Positions 24,121 through 60,962 of a stretch of DNA of 64,000 bases are shown here, one piece after another. The notes below the pieces were generated by a model, which had not been told where the DNA came from, did not search any database, and was given only the letters and a program-made list of their open reading frames with translations. Every line of letters starts with the position of its first letter. The stretch's first letter is position 1. The DNA is from a virus (Duplodnaviria; Caudoviricetes). A program made the position numbers and the translations under genes. The stretch spans positions 68,414 to 132,413 of IMG/VR virus record IMGVR_UViG_3300033120_000845; one strand, written 5' to 3'.

Positions 24121-24150
24121 TCCCTTGTAAAAATTTGCAAGGGATTTTTT
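24121..24150 (+). terminator. Intrinsic terminator after the giant-protein operon
   Basis: TCCCTTGTAA...TTGCAAGGGA followed by TTTTTT. Confidence 0.65.
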
Positions 24151-24165
24151 ATTTTACTATATTTG
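24135..24165 (+). promoter_or_regulatory. Bacteroidota sigma-A-type promoter
   Basis: TTG-N20-TATATTTG, overlapping the terminator, upstream of the endonuclease gene. Confidence 0.7.
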
Positions 24166-24183: not shown

Positions 24184-24957
24184 ATGTCACCAAAGAAAGG
24201 AAAAAACAGCCCCTATTTTAAAGACAAGACAGGTGAAAAACACATTACTAACGAGGGATATGAGATAGAAATTGTAGAATATTTTGGAGCATTCGATTGT
24301 ACAATAGTATTCAGTGATGTATATAAGGCGGTATTATATAATGTACACTATAGCAATATTAAAATAGGTCAAGTTAGAAATCCATATCATCCTGCTCTCT
24401 ATGGGATAGGGTATTATGGACAAGGTAAATATGAACATTACAAAGATAAAACTCCTACTATATGTTGTCGTAGATGGAGAAGTTTAATAGAGAGAAGTGG
24501 TTCAATTAAACTTAAAGAGATATATACTACTTACAAAGACGTTACCGTTTGTGAAGAGTGGAAATGTTTTCAAAACTTTGCAGAGTGGTTTGAGAAAAAC
24601 TATATCGATGGGTGGGACTTAGATAAAGATATTTTAGTAAAAGGAAACAAAGTTTATAGCCCTGAAACTTGCTGTTTTATACCACATGAAGTCAATTCAA
24701 TGATTGTTAAATCTGATAAAAATAGAGGAGAATGCCCCATAGGTGTTAGAAAAATATACAACAGATTTCAAGCAAGAATTAATAAAGGAGACCAATTAAT
24801 AAATTTAGGACGATTTGATAAAAAAGAAGAAGCCTTCCGAGCATATAAAATCGCAAAAGAGGATTACATTAAAGAAGTGGCGGACAAATATAAGCACCAA
24901 TTACCCGAAAAAGTTTATGAAGCACTTTACAACTACCAAGTAGAAATAACAGATTAA
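24184..24957 (+). CDS. HNH-like homing endonuclease with AP2-type C-terminal domain
   Basis: VCEEWKCFQNFAEWF...WDLDKDILVKGNKVYSPETCCFIP; GVRK..NRFQARI....INLGRF...EEAFRAY. Confidence 0.7.
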   Translation: MSPKKGKNSPYFKDKTGEKHITNEGYEIEIVEYFGAFDCTIVFSDVYKAVLYNVHYSNIKIGQVRNPYHPALYGIGYYGQGKYEHYKDKTPTICCRRWRSLIERSGSIKLKEIYTTYKDVTVCEEWKCFQNFAEWFEKNYIDGWDLDKDILVKGNKVYSPETCCFIPHEVNSMIVKSDKNRGECPIGVRKIYNRFQARINKGDQLINLGRFDKKEEAFRAYKIAKEDYIKEVADKYKHQLPEKVYEALYNYQVEITD

Positions 24958-40715: not shown

Positions 40716-41423
40716 TTATTTCATTATTATTGAAGTGATATTGTCGTAAACATGCTCCTTTCTAGGGATAAGTAAATAATCCTTTACTACATTAGTTTTT
40801 TGATATGGGGTCATTAACACAAAGTTTTCATCGTCTTTAAAATTAAAGTATGCCTCTTCTAATTCTAAAGGCATTATTTTATAATCATAACATTTTAAAT
40901 CGAGTTTTCTCATCATTTTAGATAGAATCATGGCTCCATTCCATTTAGAAATATACAAGTAAGAAAAAACTCTTCCATCTTTTTTAGTTTCTGTGAGTAT
41001 TGAAGGATAAATACCTAATTTATTAAAAAATGGGAGCAGTACTTTTTCTTCAATGTTCCTATCTAAAGCGTGGGTATTTATATTGTAAAAATTATTTGTT
41101 TTATGTCTTGACCCGTCATCCATCATCCAAAGAGCTATGCCTAACTCGTCTAATTCATTTACAATATCTTGATAAGTGTAATCTAATAATTTCCTACCAA
41201 AATCAGACACCCTACAAGAAATACTAAAAATAGGAGCTTTTTTAAAACCTTGATTCATACTTTCTCTCACTTCTGCGGTACATAGATTTCCCAGCAATTT
41301 CTTTTTTAATTCCATGTACTCTTTGTGTACACAATTAAAGCTCATAGCCCCTGTCTTGTGCAAGCTGCCATCTCCTAAAATTCCGCTTAACATTATTTGT
41401 TTTTGTTCGTTTGTTATTTCCAT
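40716..41423 (-). CDS. Free-standing LAGLIDADG homing endonuclease
   Basis: Two motifs, MLSGILGDGSL and IALWMMDDGS. Confidence 0.85.
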   Translation of the reverse strand: MEITNEQKQIMLSGILGDGSLHKTGAMSFNCVHKEYMELKKKLLGNLCTAEVRESMNQGFKKAPIFSISCRVSDFGRKLLDYTYQDIVNELDELGIALWMMDDGSRHKTNNFYNINTHALDRNIEEKVLLPFFNKLGIYPSILTETKKDGRVFSYLYISKWNGAMILSKMMRKLDLKCYDYKIMPLELEEAYFNFKDDENFVLMTPYQKTNVVKDYLLIPRKEHVYDNITSIIMK

Positions 41424-41542: not shown

Positions 41543-41573
41543 CAAAGGTATGAAATTTTACTTAATTGTGCAA
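41543..41573 (-). promoter_or_regulatory. Bacteroidota-type promoter
   Basis: TTG-N20-TACCTTTG. Confidence 0.65.
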
Positions 41574-41595
41574 ACTACTTAACTTTAGTTTAACA

Positions 41596-43614
41596 CTAAT
41601 GCGTTTCAGATATATTACTTCCCACTTGGGTTTCACATGCTAACTCTACATTTAATCTCAATTGACTATTAACCCTTCTCATTGCTTCACTAATAATATC
41701 AATAGTTTTTTGAGTATTTGATTCTTCTACAATATACGCTGAATCGTCATGTGATTGAGTTACAGGAAAAATTCCCATCTGAGTACAATTCCATACCCAC
41801 ATGTTGAAGCAATAAACTGCGCTAGACTGGTTTATAATACTGAAAATATCTTTTGAGTTCCTACAATAATAGTAGAATTTTGAAATAGGGTTATATATCC
41901 AAGTCTCATCCCCAACTTTTTTTGAAATAAAGCTATTTGTTACTTCTTTTACTGCAAAATGAATTTGCCAATACGAATCTATAAGTTTTTGTGCTTCTTT
42001 TTTAGATATTTCTAAAGTTCTGCCTAAAGTCTCACTGCCTACAAGGTAGAGTGAGCTATAGTTACAAGTTTTCCCCTTACTTCTAACATTTTTCAATTTT
42101 TTCATTAAATCATTTTGCTCCGCCTCAGGTAAAGAAAGTAATTTTCTAACTTCATCCGTTGGTTTATAAAGTTCACTAAAGGTTTCAACATCTAAGTTAG
42201 GGTTGTCTTTCACAGCGGATTTAAATATATAGAAAACCTCCTCATCCGAAGACATTAGCCCTGCAAAAACAGAAATTTCGCAATGGGGGTCAAAGTAAGG
42301 CATTTGTGTTTTTTTAATTCTCTCAGGATTGATAAAAAACGTATAATGGTCTGACGTTCTACTTTCAATACCTGAAAGGTCACTCTGAACAATTTTCTTC
42401 CCTTCTCCCGCTATAAGGCACTCTCTAATCCATTTTCCATCCCTAATATCTCCTTTTCCTGTATAACGAGGAAGATTCACCAAAACGGAGTGCATCCACC
42501 TCATAGAAACGGCTAAGGCTTGTAAACCTTGAGAAATCATTTCATTTTCATCCATTTTAGAAAGAAATGATTTTAATATACCTATCCTATGAGTGAGAAT
42601 TGTAAGTCCATCAAAAGCTTCAATAGCAGGCTCTTTATCAATTAGCTTTAAAACACTTGAACAAAGCATTTTATCCTCTGTCATAATCTGCTCAACTACC
42701 TTAGTTTCATTAGTTTCTTTATCCCTATTGTGTTTAAATGTTTTTGGACTCCATCCCAAAAGATAAAGCCAGTCTTTTTTTTGTTTTACGGAATTTGGAT
42801 TAGGCTCTTCCCAAGATATAATTTCTTCAATTTCACCATCGTAATTATCAGACAAATTGCATCCTTTAATTAATGTCATCCATTTTTCTCCAGCCACTGA
42901 AAGACTTCCATCTTTTTTATACAAGGAGTTTGGCTTCTTTCTCTTAACTTTTACAGGAATTTTAGGCATTGCTTTTCTAAGCTGCTCTAATTTTTCTTCC
43001 TTTAATGATTCAAAGTATGCAAGATTTTTTTTAGTCTTATCAACATCAACTTTTATCTTCTGCTTCTCTTGCATAAAAGAGCAGTCCATAATCCAATTTA
43101 ATAGGTTTATAAGTCTTATTTTATCTTTTGAGCTATCTTCATACATTAAGTCAAGTTTAGCTCTTAAATCTTCCCAAAGTAGTATATTAATCTTTACATC
43201 TTCTTCACAACGATGGACATATTCTTCATAAGACAAGTTTTCCCAATCTGTTATTTTTGGTTTTGGTACTCCATAATCTTCTCCGAATGATTCTAAGCCG
43301 AATTTTTTCCCCTCTTTTGCACGAGTTGGATAAAGCCACCAAGCCAAAGCTAAGGAATCAATAACAGTTGCTGTAACAGTGATATTGTGTATTTTTTCCA
43401 AAACAGGCTTGTCGTATCGTCTTCCATTATGCATTACAATAATGTTTTCAGGATTACAGAATACTTTTTCTACATCTTCTTTTTTATCTGTAGATTTTAT
43501 TACCCATTTTCCTTCGCTGTTTTTATAGCCGACAGATAGTACATGCATCTTTGTCACTTGCTCAATTAACCCATCAGTTTCGCAGTCTGCAACAAAAATC
43601 TTATCTAAATTCAT
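41596..43614 (-). CDS. polA: Family A DNA polymerase with 3'-5' exonuclease
   Basis: Exo motifs ADCETDG, HNGRRYD, RCEEDV; pol motif A SDLSGIESR, motif B RSKGKTCNYSSLY, motif C QSHDD. Confidence 0.92.
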   Translation of the reverse strand: MNLDKIFVADCETDGLIEQVTKMHVLSVGYKNSEGKWVIKSTDKKEDVEKVFCNPENIIVMHNGRRYDKPVLEKIHNITVTATVIDSLALAWWLYPTRAKEGKKFGLESFGEDYGVPKPKITDWENLSYEEYVHRCEEDVKINILLWEDLRAKLDLMYEDSSKDKIRLINLLNWIMDCSFMQEKQKIKVDVDKTKKNLAYFESLKEEKLEQLRKAMPKIPVKVKRKKPNSLYKKDGSLSVAGEKWMTLIKGCNLSDNYDGEIEEIISWEEPNPNSVKQKKDWLYLLGWSPKTFKHNRDKETNETKVVEQIMTEDKMLCSSVLKLIDKEPAIEAFDGLTILTHRIGILKSFLSKMDENEMISQGLQALAVSMRWMHSVLVNLPRYTGKGDIRDGKWIRECLIAGEGKKIVQSDLSGIESRTSDHYTFFINPERIKKTQMPYFDPHCEISVFAGLMSSDEEVFYIFKSAVKDNPNLDVETFSELYKPTDEVRKLLSLPEAEQNDLMKKLKNVRSKGKTCNYSSLYLVGSETLGRTLEISKKEAQKLIDSYWQIHFAVKEVTNSFISKKVGDETWIYNPISKFYYYCRNSKDIFSIINQSSAVYCFNMWVWNCTQMGIFPVTQSHDDSAYIVEESNTQKTIDIISEAMRRVNSQLRLNVELACETQVGSNISETH

Positions 43615-52842: not shown

Positions 52843-54969
52843 TTACTTAATTGGGCAAGCTCCATTGTCACATCCACCTAATTCTTCAAAGTCTTCTTCT
52901 TTCAATTCTACAGAAGTAATAGGTTTAACTTTTGAAGACATTTCTAAATACTGTGCTTCTGTAATAGGTTCAAAAGGTGCTTGTTGAAAACCATGTCCTG
53001 AGTATAATAAGAAGCTTAAAGTTTTAAAATTGTCTTTAAAATTATCTTCTAAATACTGTTTTAATACAGGTAACTCTTCTTTCTTATAATAAGCTGTAAC
53101 AGACACTGAATTATCTGACCAATTTTTCTGCATAAATTTAACCTTTTCAAGTTGCTCAAAAACAGTCATATCATCAGCAGAAATTGTTCCGTCAGGGTAT
53201 TTACAAGGAAACTCTACAACCATTGTGCTCCTATCGTCTGTCCCATCAAAATTCTTTTGAGGCTCTACGTGATACCCGTTAGCTCTACAAACATCGATTA
53301 ATGGAGACCCTGATTGCATTCTGATTCTTCTAATATAATACTGCCCTGATGTTGCGGGATGTACGCCTGAAGTACACCCTGCTAATAAAGACAGAGACCC
53401 ACTTGGCTTAACTGTTGTTAATTTAATACTTGCATTGAATCCCATAGCTTTAGAATATTCTTTATCATAAGCTCTTAAATATTTATAGCAACCATCTAAC
53501 CAACTAAGCTGTTTATCTGTACACATCATTACACCTGTAATACCAATACCCATACGCATATTCTTATGTACGATATCTTCTGTATCTTTTTGGTGACAAC
53601 TTAATGCCAGAGAGTGTTTATTAACTCTATACAACATAGTAGCTACTTTCAATAATTCTTCATACGAAGTGATATTAGGTAAGTAAATTTCAGCTAGGCA
53701 GCATGTTTCAAAACTAGCTAAAGATTGTTCCGCACCAAATTTGTTACTCTACTAATAGAGGATAAGTCATTTCTGCTTATCTCTGCAATTTCAGTTTGTT
53801 ATATTTGCAGTTCGGACTATACCACCTTCTCATTGAGAAGCCCCTTGGTAGTCTCTGAGGGCTTGCATTTCTGCCTATCCCTGCTGATTATCCTCTTCAG
53901 GACTTCCCAGCATATTCAGGGTTATTCGTAATACATCGCTGTATTAAGCCGCTAGCGTTAACGGATTGTATCCTTCCACATCAGGGTCAGGGTATTCATA
54001 TTCTCCTAATCTACCTACTTTCCTAGATAACTCTAAATTAATTAAACCGTAAGGCTCTCCTTGTTCATAAGTATCCCAAAATTCTTGAGGTAAATCTTTA
54101 ACATCTTGTACATCAATAGAATTGTTAGACATTGCTCTCCAATTAGGTACATTACCTAAATCCCATCTTTTAGCTTTTAAATATTCTAAATCATCATAAT
54201 CGCCAATAGCTATTTGAGCACTTCTTCTGATATTTCCTGCGACTACAATCATACCAATGATATTCATAATATCTAAACAGTCTATGGGTCTTAATTGCTT
54301 TCCTCTTCTCTTATCTAACACACCTTGTATTAAATCAATACCCTCTACTAAAATACTCGCTCCTGAAGAAACTCCTCCAAAGCCTTTAATTAATTCTCCT
54401 TTTCCTCTGATTAATTGAGTACTGTAAGTAAAACTTTCTCCTGAATAAAAATAAGACTTTAAAACTTTCCCTAATAATTTAACCCACCCTTCTCGTGTAT
54501 CAGGAACGATAAAATCAGCTTGTTTATCATCGAGCCTTACTATTTTTGGTTTTTTCTTTTGTAATTTAGGTAGCTTATATACGTGCTCTTTTTTAATTGA
54601 GTAACCTACCCCTGAACCCAACATAAGCATGTCCATCGCCCAAGTGAAAGGTTTAATTGGATTATCAATAACAACAAAAGCACAATTTTGTAAAGAGGGT
54701 AATCCTAATCGGTCAACTGTTTCTGTACCCAATTGCCACATAAATCTCCCCGCTACCGAGCCTTTCATATTGTGGCGCATATCCCTATAGAATTCTTTCT
54801 CTTCAGGTAATAAATTTAATTTTAATTGTTTTTCAATACCTTTTAACTCTCTTTCAACTGTGTCTGAGAATTCCTCTGTTGTTCCATCTTTTTTTGTTCT
54901 TGCATACGTCCTCTTGTAGGTAATGTAGCCGAGCTCACCCCATTTAACGGGTCTTTTTTCAATTTCCAT
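52843..54969 (-). CDS. nrdJ: Class II (adenosylcobalamin-dependent, monomeric RTPR-type) ribonucleotide reductase; exons 54969-53961 and 53735-52843
   Basis: TYKRTY, LQNCAF, GSGVG, VVAGNIRRSA; spliced NPCAEQ; TTVKPSG; DNSVSVT; C-terminal CDNGACPIK; joined length 633 aa. Confidence 0.9.
53736..53960 (-). ncRNA. Group I self-splicing intron (225 nt, no ORF)
   Basis: 5' exon ends in U, intron ends in G; P1 CCGU/GCGG; P ATGCTGGGAA, Q AATCAGCAG, R CTCAGAGACTAC, S GGTATAGTCC; removal restores AAT CCG T|GT GCG GAA (NPCAE). Confidence 0.92.
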
Positions 54970-58302: not shown

Positions 58303-58713
58303 CTACAAATTTCTCGAATTTTTATATTGCTCTTTGAATTTAACTACAGCTTCTTTTAAATCTTCAGCTCTTAAAAAGCAGAGGCGCGTACTAACACCAG
58401 AAAAAGCGTGGTAATTAATGCAGTCGTCGTAAGCGAAGTTTTTTCCTAAATAAAAATAAGGGTAGTACTTTCTTTGATTGGTATTATCCCAATCACATTT
58501 AACTCCTTTGTTATAAAAGTTCACAATCATTCTCTCCACTTCTTGAAATTTTGCAAACTCTGAAACATTTTTATAAAGTTCTTCAAAAGCTCCTTCTGTA
58601 GTATTATGATACGTATAAACTTCATCCATTGGATTTTGTTTTTTAGCGTTTTCAATTAGCTCGTTTAATTCTGACAAAGAAAATTCTTTACCATTGATAT
58701 TAATTTTTTCCAT
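58303..58713 (-). CDS. DGR target protein 1 (136 aa)
   Basis: Contains VR1 encoding FAYDDCINYHAFSGVSTRLC. Confidence 0.85.
   Translation of the reverse strand: MEKININGKEFSLSELNELIENAKKQNPMDEVYTYHNTTEGAFEELYKNVSEFAKFQEVERMIVNFYNKGVKCDWDNTNQRKYYPYFYLGKNFAYDDCINYHAFSGVSTRLCFLRAEDLKEAVVKFKEQYKNSRNL
58379..58438 (-). repeat. DGR variable repeat VR1
   Basis: 10 mismatches to TR in 60 nt, all at TR adenines. Confidence 0.92.
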
Positions 58714-59645
58714 AATATTTTTCTGTTAAATTTATTGAATCACAAGCAGATAACCAGCCTTTATAAGATGGTAACGACTTAAGATTATTCCTCTTCTTTA
58801 TAAATTTTTTCTTAATTGTTTTTCTTAATAATGTATGTGTATGATAGTGTTTGAATCCTAAAAAGTCAATTCCGCGTTTTTCAACAGGAAATACTTGATA
58901 ACTTTTATTTATTTCTAAATTTAACTCTTTTAACTTAACTCTCATTTTAAATAAAACTTCGTGTAGGGACTCTTTACTGTTTGATAAAATAACTAAATCA
59001 TCGCAGTACCTGAAGTAATATCTGATTTTTAATTCTTGTTTTAAATAGTGGTCAAAATCATTTAAATATACGTTAGCTAATATTTGGCTTAATAAGTTAC
59101 CAAGAGGTAGTCCTTTAGCAGAGTCTATAATCTCGTCTAATAATTTTAAAGTCGGTTTACATTTTATTTTTCGCCTAATTTTAGTTTTTAATATTTCATT
59201 ATTTATTGAAGGATAGAATTTTTTAATGTCTATTTTTAAACAAAATTTTGTACCATCGATGTCTTTCAAAACCCTTCTTAAATTATAAGAACATTTATGA
59301 ACACCTCTTCCTTTTATCGAACTATAAGTGTCAGCAACAAATGTTGGTGTGAATATAGATTCAATTTGTAAATATATCCCCCAATGCATAATCCTGTCAG
59401 GGATAATAAGGTAACCTTGAAATTACTCTATGTTTAGGTTCAAAAATTTCAAAGTCATTATAGTGTGAAGTTTTGTATTCTCCATTAATTAATATATTAT
59501 TTAAATGTAATATATTTTGTTCTTCGTTTTCAAGATGTATTTTAACCCCTTTCTGCTTTAGTTTCCCCCTTCTTGCTCGTTTATCTGCCTGTTTTAAATT
59601 TTCTATACTAATAATCTTACTATAAATATTTCCTGTTCTTCTCAT
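58700..59645 (-). CDS. DGR reverse transcriptase, split by a +1 frameshift at 59397-59402 (joined length about 314 aa)
   Basis: EPKHRVISRLPYYP|DRIMH; KIDIKKFYPSI; GLPLGNLLSQ; YFRYCDD; IDFLGF. Confidence 0.92.
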
Positions 59646-59747
59646 ACTCTGTTTAAGAAGGTTGTTTTCGATTACTCTACTAACAACCTATTAAGGCTTC
59701 TTTTTATTTTTCACCATGTTGGTGAGGTTAATATACTTTTTAAATAA

Positions 59748-59808
59748 ACATAGGTGCGTACTAACATCAGAATTAGTGTTGTAATTATTGTAGTCGTTGT
59801 AAGCGAAG
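59748..59808 (-). repeat. DGR template repeat TR (non-coding)
   Basis: CTTCGCTTACAACGACTACAATAATTACAACACTAATTCTGATGTTAGTACGCACCTATGT, AAY-rich; hairpin TCACCA-TGT-TGGTGA at 59711-59725 between TR and RT. Confidence 0.92.
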
Positions 59809-59823
59809 GGTGCTACAACTATA

Positions 59824-60294
59824 TTAACCTTGTAACATAAATGACTTAAAAATTTTAACAAACTCTTTGTTTTTTCCTATGTATTCACATAAATATCTTG
59901 ATTTCAGACAGAGGCGCGCACTAACATCAGAATGAGCGTCGTAAAAATTGTAGTCGTAGTAAGCGAAGCCATCTTCTTGCATTTTCCACCAAATTTGATA
60001 TTTATATTCTGAAGAATCCTTCCAATCAAAGACATACTTTTCGTTTAAAGATTTCACTATAACAATAGCTTCTTGTTGACTTACAACGTGAGGAGATAAT
60101 CCAACAACAGATTGTAATAATTTTAATTGAGTTACTTCTTCATCCTCATCACCCAAGTAACTAACGGCATCGTTTAATGTTTTAATTCTTTCTGTAATAT
60201 CTTTGACTACTTCTTTAAAGGTCAGTTTACCTGTGTTTTTATCAAAACTGTCTACTTCATATCCTTGTGGGATTTCAATCTTTACTTCTTTCAT
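59824..60294 (-). CDS. DGR target protein 2 (156 aa)
   Basis: Contains VR2 encoding FAYYDYNFYDAHSDVSARLC. Confidence 0.85.
   Translation of the reverse strand: MKEVKIEIPQGYEVDSFDKNTGKLTFKEVVKDITERIKTLNDAVSYLGDEDEEVTQLKLLQSVVGLSPHVVSQQEAIVIVKSLNEKYVFDWKDSSEYKYQIWWKMQEDGFAYYDYNFYDAHSDVSARLCLKSRYLCEYIGKNKEFVKIFKSFMLQG
59908..59968 (-). repeat. DGR variable repeat VR2
   Basis: 9 mismatches to TR in 61 nt, all at TR adenines. Confidence 0.92.
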
Positions 60295-60334
60295 AATTTT
60301 TTATTTTTTTGTTTAAATACTCATTCTTCGTTTA

Positions 60335-60365
60335 CAAATATATGTATTTATATTTTAATGTGCAA
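60335..60365 (-). promoter_or_regulatory. Promoter of the DGR operon
   Basis: TTGCAC start; TTG-N20-TATATTTG. Confidence 0.7.
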
Positions 60366-60391
60366 ATTTTTTTATTCTTTTTTCGCGGAAT

Positions 60392-60818: not shown

Positions 60819-60849
60819 CAAATATATATCTTTATTTTTAATTGTGCAA
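60819..60849 (-). promoter_or_regulatory. Bacteroidota-type promoter
   Basis: TTGCAC start; TTG-N20-TATATTTG. Confidence 0.7.
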
Positions 60850-60962
60850 ATTATTTTTGTAATTTATAATGATTTTAGATAAGTTATTTTATTCACTTTT
60901 AAACATGACAATAAACTTCGACTTTCATCGAAGAATTTTTATTATTACCTACTATAGGGAGC

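Follow-up and report, generated by a model that had tools for sequence, protein, structure and literature searches.

A compact diversity-generating retroelement with a frameshifted reverse transcriptase and two small target genes in a 132-kb phage

Cassette layout and the adenine-restricted repeats

A compact cassette with the make-up of a diversity-generating retroelement (DGR) lies in a 64,000-nt stretch of phage DNA, positions 68,414 to 132,413 of the 132-kb IMG/VR virus record IMGVR_UViG_3300033120_000845; this whole stretch is called the window below, and its own numbering is used. In the cassette a reverse transcriptase (RT) gene adjoins a template repeat (TR), and copies of that repeat, the variable repeats (VRs), lie in two small target genes. 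All parts are on the minus strand and follow one another, in order of transcription, as a promoter-like site, a target of 156 aa, the TR, a spacer, the RT in two pieces and a target of 136 aa. The 3' ends of the repeats are listed as candidate counterparts of the initiation of mutagenic homing (IMH) elements.

60335-60366, minus strand: promoter-like site, TTTGCAC-N-TATATTTG, about 40 nt upstream of the 156-aa target
59824-60294, minus strand: upstream target, 156 aa (phrog_11581; apparently PC_00007 of Roux et al.)
59909-59968, minus strand: VR in the 156-aa target, 9 mismatches to the TR, all at TR adenines
59909-59917, minus strand: IMH-like end of the VR in the 156-aa target, GCGCCTCTG
59749-59808, minus strand: TR, 60 nt with 20 adenines, from repeat comparison
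59749-59757, minus strand: IMH*-like end of the TR, its last 9 nt, GCACCTATG
59646-59748, minus strand: spacer between TR and RT, 103 nt, conserved structured RNA by alignment and Rfam comparison
59397-59645, minus strand: N-terminal piece of the RT, 82 aa, stopping at TGA (phrog_1423 positions 96-174)
59396-59402, minus strand: frameshift site CCC_TGA_C, one extra C against CCT GAC of the relatives
58700-59389, minus strand: C-terminal piece of the RT, 229 aa as called from ATG (RVT_1; phrog_1423 positions 181-435)
58303-58713, minus strand: downstream target, 136 aa, its start overlapping the RT stop by 14 nt
58379-58438, minus strand: VR in the 136-aa target, 10 mismatches to the TR, all at TR adenines
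58379-58387, minus strand: IMH-like end of the VR in the 136-aa target, GCGCCTCTG

An earlier note on this DNA, made by a model from the letters of the sequence, had claimed that the VRs depart from the TR at adenines only. Our comparison agrees with this claim: the 9 mismatches in the 156-aa open reading frame (ORF) and the 10 in the 136-aa one are confined to the 20 TR adenines (19 of 19, joint hypergeometric p = 2.8e-11). TR/VR differences lying almost only on TR adenines, one of the marks by which a DGR is recognised, are thus present. Since the two VRs differ from one another at several TR-adenine positions, they have been rewritten independently, and the lack of any non-adenine mismatch in either VR suggests that retrohoming was recent.

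The VRs end 27 codons (156-aa ORF) and 24 codons (136-aa ORF) ahead of the stops, and their positions in the two proteins are 0.76 and 0.75 of the length. Read in the frame of the targets, the TR encodes FAYNDYNNYNTNSDVSTHLC with five AAY codons, and no adenine substitution in it can give a stop codon. With the two 3'-most adenines left out, there are 18 variable adenines in 13 codons, giving each target a theoretical diversity of ~7e10 DNA variants and ~5e10 protein variants, all free of stop codons. Each VR has 7 or 8 of the 18 changed (~40%), a density close to the roughly 50% reported for active DGRs (PMC11601372). The earlier note had also advised looking for further VRs, and a search of the whole 132-kb record found no third one.

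For locus comparisons we fetched 80 related loci. Adenine-biased TR/VR pairs are present in 66 of these, and the same RT, ~50% identical to that of the window, lies just downstream of the targets in 64 of the 80. The comparison helps to explain the 3' ends of the repeats, where both VRs read CGC CTC (Arg-Leu) and the TR reads CAC CTA (His-Leu), or GCGCCTCTG against GCACCTATG. In about 45 related loci that were inspected, the last TR adenines are altered identically in every VR of every locus (TR ...GTCAGCTCNCACCTATGC against VR ...GTCGGCTCNCGCCTTTGC). Because of this uniformity, and because Arg-Leu-Cys is nearly invariant across the target protein family, these 3' differences are fixed and lie outside the transferred segment. 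Judged by sequence, they correspond to IMH and IMH* of the BPP-1 DGR, as the earlier note had guessed, and the cassette thus has a fixed 3' boundary element.

The split reverse transcriptase, the spacer RNA and accessory genes

The RT had been taken for a single ORF in the earlier note, which our analysis corrects. The gene spans 59645-58700 on the minus strand and is broken into a piece of 82 aa and one of 229 aa that are out of frame with each other, a single-base insertion, one extra C, lying between them. Against the profile phrog_1423 the first piece covers positions 96-174 and the second, following on, positions 181-435, and the C-terminal piece scores 3.3e-21 against RVT_1 and 4.5e-80 against phrog_1423. 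The translation keeps the GxxxSQ (LGNLLSQ) and YxDD (YCDD) motifs. The TR is thus adjoined by a DGR-clade RT with both motifs, though its gene is split by a 1-nt insertion, and this is the only RT in the 132-kb record.

At the frameshift site the window reads TAT TAT CCC TGA CAG G, where the relatives read TAT TAT CCT GAC AGA. In all 64 related loci with this RT, its two parts share a reading frame and are four codons apart, and the insertion is found in none of the 64. By this comparison, the insertion is a lineage-specific change, and by chance it gives rise to a shifty stop of the classic kind: in E. coli ribosomes are prone to shift at CCC_UGA, and prfB uses a +1 shift at CUU_UGA_C. If tRNA-Pro slipped by +1 at the UGA-C stop, from CCC to CCU, the product would be exactly the conserved LPYYPDRIMH. 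Since none of the 64 homologs has the shift, CCC_UGA_C is not a conserved programmed +1 frameshift site of the prfB kind. Full-length RT would be made only through a +1 ribosomal slip at CCC_UGA_C, so that the element would be working at a low level or have been inactivated recently, and the frameshift bears on whether the DGR copy in the window is still active.

A quick tree of the RTs, with Shimodaira-Hasegawa-like approximate likelihood ratio test (SH-aLRT) support, places the window RT together with those of two relatives, L011 and L035, in a supported clade (SH-aLRT 98) that is sister to the other 56 RTs. All three loci have one target upstream of the TR and RT and one that overlaps the RT stop. 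The terminal branch of the window RT is the longest in the tree (1.59 against a median of 0.28), and the root-to-tip lengths of its sister taxa are ~1.1-1.2. L035 comes from a 141-kb contig, on which synteny with the window extends beyond the cassette.

One account of the split gene, which we regard as possible but doubtful, is that the DGR is a recently dead relic, whose RT was knocked out by the insertion and whose VRs preserve the outcome of earlier retrohoming. The absence of the frameshift from all 64 relatives and the long branch of the window RT would fit such a relic, as would the fragmented or deleted RT genes that are reported to be common in DGR cassettes of crAss-like phages (PMC11054128). 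Against a dead element speak two VRs that show no non-adenine mismatch over 60 nt, RT halves that are otherwise open and keep the catalytic motifs, a spacer RNA that retains all of its invariant positions (below) and an insertion that produced a shifty stop at which slipping by +1 gives back exactly the conserved sequence. The branch itself, set against the root-to-tip lengths of the sister taxa, is only modestly longer.

We think it rather unlikely that the frameshift is an assembly or sequencing error and that the RT is intact in the real phage. The change is a single base in a short C run and the RTs of all relatives are in frame, as an error would have it. A run of three bases is, however, an atypical error site, and the window has many very long intact ORFs (up to 1832 aa), so that indel errors should be rare in the assembly and an error is not our first guess.

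The TR and the RT are 103 nt apart in the window and 92-117 nt apart in 57 of 62 loci. An alignment of this spacer from 53 loci shows a hairpin (CCTTGCC-N4-GGCAA), AAAAAT, a longer stem enclosing GGTA, a small hairpin and GAA, with compensatory changes in 12 of the 13 predicted pairs. The window spacer keeps every invariant position and folds alike, into a hairpin (CACC-loop-GGTG), AAAAAT, an 8-bp stem AGGTTGTT/AACAACCT enclosing GTA, a small hairpin and GAA. The Rfam families RT-17 (RF03020) and RT-14 (RF02921) have the same architecture of hairpin, A-run, long stem with GTA, small hairpin and GAA, and their match to the window spacer spans the whole model and lies immediately ahead of the RT start. 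The window copy differs in that it scores below both gathering scores (34.4 against 48.1 bits for RT-14, 25.7 against 40.4 bits for RT-17); that of RT-17 is passed by 3 of the 13 relatives searched, L046 (52.7), L017 (41.9) and L022 (41.4). In BPP-1 cDNA synthesis is primed within the spacer, and by analogy the spacer RNA is probably what the RT of this cassette binds and primes from.

Avd accompanies ~74% of DGRs and is thus not strictly defining. The earlier note saw no Avd in the unit, called for a search of the genome and held that an Avd homolog in the locus would speak against its reading. Searched with PF05635 and TIGR02436, the 132-kb record has no match at E <= 1, and the 103-nt gap between TR and RT is too small for an ORF. 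As the record is ~92% complete, the absence of Avd from the phage is likely but not certain. We do not count the 56-aa ORF that spans the TR (59691-59861) as an accessory gene, since it is the template copy of the target's C-terminal coding sequence. Among the DGRs surveyed by Wu et al. (2018), 29% have architecture A, that is TR and RT with no accessory gene, and a whole RT lineage is without avd (PMC5758913).

In 54 of the 64 relatives a small, conserved, basic, OB-fold-like ORF of 98 aa (phrog_19665, e.g. L022:8016-8312) overlaps the end of the RT gene, in most loci by 14 nt. The window genome is without this gene, and the 136-aa target occupies its place. We consider the 98-aa protein a candidate substitute for Avd in this class of DGR. 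No description of the gene was found in the papers searched, and a sequence-profile search of the PDB gave no match to it. Five relatives (L015, L016, L025, L030 and L058) have ORFs of 65-136 aa between TR and RT, with a spacer of ~470-515 nt; as these ORFs are mutually unrelated, they were rejected as a conserved accessory.

The target proteins and their family

The 156-aa and 136-aa targets are paralogs, 36% identical over their C-terminal halves. Both are soluble and mildly acidic (isoelectric points 5.1 and 5.8), the maximum Kyte-Doolittle mean over 19 residues is 1.14, and computation on the sequences found no signal peptide, membrane segment or hydrophobic stretch in either. Pfam has no match for either target or for 127 members of their family, and sequence-profile searches of the PDB gave none for the targets. 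The ESM Atlas returned only unnamed viral clusters and BFVD only uncharacterised phage proteins; in PHROGs, the family of the 156-aa target is phrog_11581, of unknown function.

The earlier note had raised a C-type lectin-like fold as something that structure prediction should address. With an alignment of 127 sequences, AlphaFold2 gave a confident model of the 156-aa target, with a predicted local distance difference test (pLDDT) score of 88.6 and a predicted TM-score (pTM) of 0.79; compared with solved structures, the model matched no fold, lectin or other. From the N-terminus, the model runs through a beta-hairpin, helices as far as residue 83 and an irregular segment from 84 to 130, and it closes with two helices. 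The irregular segment holds the conserved W91, K98, Y99 and W102 together with the variable patch (pLDDT 54-74). The variable segment, G-x-GFS...VGSRLCF, resembles the CLec3 repeats that end crAss tail targets (...GSRLVYRP), and in a profile-profile comparison with CLec3 only those 28 columns align, at a probability of 32%. Our reading, guided by the model, is that the targets would present a CLec3-like variable segment in a different small scaffold, and they may hold a minimal lectin-like subdomain.

The 156-aa protein has 12 homologs of ~150 aa in a 90%-clustered collection, tblastn confirmed 180 relatives in viral contigs, and a profile built on 127 members finds 5,188 representative proteins at E <= 0.001. 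Some of the profile matches (among P0017-P0030) are 250-350 aa long with two copies of the domain, being either tandem fusions or merged gene calls. In the related loci there are 135 VR-bearing ORFs, mostly of 120-160 aa, with the VR ending 21-27 codons ahead of the stop, and usually two or three tandem targets precede the TR, with the RT last. One locus has, besides two adjacent targets, a third VR-bearing family member (L013:986-1519) 5.8 kb upstream of the TR.

In this phage the targets are in the replication module, ~34 kb from the nearest identified virion structural genes, which are on the opposite strand; in the window, such genes occupy ~1.5-7.7 kb of the plus strand. The cassette has DNA methyltransferase and helix-turn-helix-like genes as neighbours at one end, exonuclease and nuclease genes at the other. 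The genes directly downstream, without a gap, are a homolog of a 3'-5' exonuclease and then a weak match to the PD-(D/E)XK nuclease family (below the Pfam cut-off). Ribonucleotide reductase, thymidylate synthase, a DnaB-like helicase and DNA polymerase are also in the minus-strand block that contains the cassette.

A comparable setting is seen in relatives. The annotated ones of ~40 kb are Mu-like transposable phages in which the cassette comes last in the early operon, behind MuA-like, MuB-like, ATPase and DUF3164 genes, and faces convergent genes for head and tail morphogenesis. The LoVEphage-like Bacteroides phage BI-TP1 (PQ571265.1) has a family member, gp84 (28% identity over residues 22-157), whose neighbours are methyltransferase, PAPS-reductase, radical-SAM and ASCH genes and which lies 57 kb away from the RT. 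Over the 112 nt of the gp84 VR there are 14 mismatches to the TR, 14 of 14 at TR adenines (loci L088:3869-4453 and L092), and the same TR serves gp84 and the RT-adjacent Mtd-like tail protein gp12. The family is thus carried by three unrelated phage architectures, and in the examples checked the targets are among early, replication or DNA-modification genes, never structural ones. This context supports, without proving, that the targets are non-structural. The view of the earlier note that they are small non-structural proteins of the early region accords with these neighbours, with their solubility and with their lack of a signal peptide.

The best-studied phage DGRs vary tail-fibre receptor-binding proteins, and one could suppose that the small targets are likewise virion-associated host-recognition or adhesin proteins, encoded outside the structural module and diversified for tropism switching as in BPP-1; the likeness of the variable segment to CLec3 repeats of tail proteins would fit, as would the TR of BI-TP1, which diversifies both an Mtd-like tail protein and a family member. 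We consider this improbable, as in the examples from each of the three architectures the genes are among, and co-oriented with, early, replication or DNA-modification genes, the proteins are 120-160 aa long with no recognisable attachment domain, and only 1.6% of PC_00007 is predicted to be structural (Roux et al., PMC8144416).

Proposed working of the cassette and its known counterparts

We argue with good confidence that the cassette is a genuine DGR of a catalogued Avd-less class, placed in the replication module of a 132-kb Bacteroidota-type phage, and that its targets are most likely binding proteins that are produced in the infected cell and do not belong to the virion. As to priming, current activity and the function of the targets, we infer the following. 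The 156-aa target, the TR, the spacer RNA, the RT and the 136-aa target would be transcribed from a host-type promoter, within a longer operon. The RT, if it works as in BPP-1, would bind the TR-spacer RNA, start cDNA in the spacer and copy the TR with misincorporation opposite adenines, after which the cDNA would take the place of the homologous 3' segment in one or the other target. How far the transfer reaches on the 3' side would be decided by the IMH-like end (VRs GCGCCTCTG, TR GCACCTATG), so that the invariant Arg-Leu-Cys after the variable patch would never be overwritten.

What the targets bind can be proposed only tentatively, and a role in counter-defence or host takeover is a reasonable guess that we would not press. 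A bolder combination, in which the targets form a non-lectin scaffold for DGR-diversified intracellular binders directed against host defence or takeover targets, with mutagenesis throttled by the +1 frameshift at CCC_UGA_C, seems to us a long shot.

Several observations weigh against our main reading. The frameshift in the RT, absent from the 64 relatives, makes the current activity of this copy uncertain. Searches of viral and metagenome contigs with the exact TR matched no close relative. A hairpin of the BPP-1 kind was sought after either VR and was not found (z -0.64 and +1.12). The non-lectin view of the fold comes from one predicted model, in which the variable patch has low confidence (pLDDT 54-74). 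The co-diversification in BI-TP1 of a family member with a tail protein leaves room for a role in host recognition.

The target family had been catalogued before. Roux et al. (2021) list plainly homologous sequences in their Supplementary Data 8, e.g. 2585424986/7 and 2588220293/4 (PMC8144416). They assign these to PC_00007, "Phage_other", DGR clade 1 and RT cluster REF_DGR_[t122]FP929032.1, with a relative VR position of 0.69-0.82, and their supplementary note describes PC_00007 as "non-structural/unknown", with 1.6% of its members predicted to be structural (PMC8144416). The reference DGRs t120 and t121 of Wu et al. (2018) likewise have small targets of this family, with a VR of class CLec3 and no accessory gene. 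The catalogue sequences and t121 share the layout W-x-D...KY...GFS...GSRLCFKS...F..Y with the window targets, which we therefore place with PC_00007 and t120-t121, homology being judged by inspection and motif search rather than by a scored alignment. The rarity implied in the earlier note is thus not borne out: Avd-less cassettes make up 29% of DGRs, and the target family is catalogued as PC_00007.

The window resembles PC_00007 in its targets of ~120-160 aa, in the VR at ~0.75 of their length followed by the ...GSRLC(F/L)K motif, in having the targets adjoin the TR and RT, in its occurrence in phages of Bacteroidota (FCB group) and in the lack of Avd. It differs in having one target upstream and one downstream, overlapping the RT stop, where PC_00007 usually has tandem upstream targets; in being a 132-kb phage with its own replication module, where PC_00007 is found in Mu-like phages of roughly 40 kb; and in a repeat of 60 nt against 70-89 nt. 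The RT of the window copy is, in addition, frameshifted.

With the BPP-1 DGR (mtd-avd-TR-brt), the cassette shares the adenine-specific transfer from TR to VR, fixed IMH/IMH* differences, an AAY-rich template and a structured spacer between TR and RT. BPP-1 has Avd and a hairpin after the VR, and the window has neither; its target is a tail-fibre protein, whereas those of the window are two small proteins of the replication module with ~25 further codons after the VR. The predicted fold of the window target also gave no match to the lectin fold of Mtd.

A further published parallel comes from temperate phages of the gut, in which second, RT-distal DGR targets lie beside counter-defence genes and a link with counter-defence has been proposed (Nature 2025, PMC12629997). 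These targets, with gp84 of BI-TP1 as an example, are of the same family, have DNA-modification or replication neighbours and show adenine-only mismatches. In those phages, however, a tail protein is served by the TR as well, and the small target lies at a distance of 57 kb, whereas in the window the small proteins are the only targets and flank the RT. The DGR of Hankyphage (2225-aa lectin target, PMC6199706) and tentaclins (PMC10743442) were rejected as counterparts, as their targets are different.

The window copy opens no new category, as the class, its lack of Avd and the idea of counter-defence are already in the literature; what is added here is the frameshifted RT. The phage DGRs studied by experiment alter receptor-binding tail proteins, and the widespread class to which this one belongs (5,188 representative clusters) diversifies small soluble proteins, whose early, replication or DNA-modification context points to hypervariable binders acting inside the infected cell. 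The copy in the window comes from a large phage that has a replication module of its own, and its layout is the most compact, with neither Avd nor the OB-fold helper. Its natural frameshift could offer a way to probe the amount of RT on which a DGR depends.

The promoter-like site upstream of the 156-aa target is putative, and its pattern, TTTGCA-N-TAnnTTTG, is what we take to be the Bacteroidota sigma-A-type promoter consensus. A regular-expression scan of the 132-kb record for TTTGCA-N17-23-TAnnTTTG found 7 sites, each preceding a gene start; three are elsewhere in the record and four are in the window:

60335-60366, minus strand: the site upstream of the 156-aa target
60819-60850, minus strand: second copy of that site
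41543-41574, minus strand: promoter-pattern site
24134-24165, plus strand: promoter-pattern site

Two of the 7 copies belong to a 47-nt direct repeat.

Three further observations concern other genes of the window. The ribonucleotide reductase is in two ORFs on the minus strand, 53944-54969 (N-terminal part of phrog_367) and 52843-53652 (C-terminal part), with ~290 nt between them; the split (52843-54969) could be an intron, an intein or a homing-endonuclease remnant, or a break. A LAGLIDADG homing endonuclease gene (40716-41423, minus strand) adjoins the DNA polymerase gene (41596-43614), and an HNH endonuclease gene (24184-24957, plus strand) comes right after a block of giant plus-strand genes.

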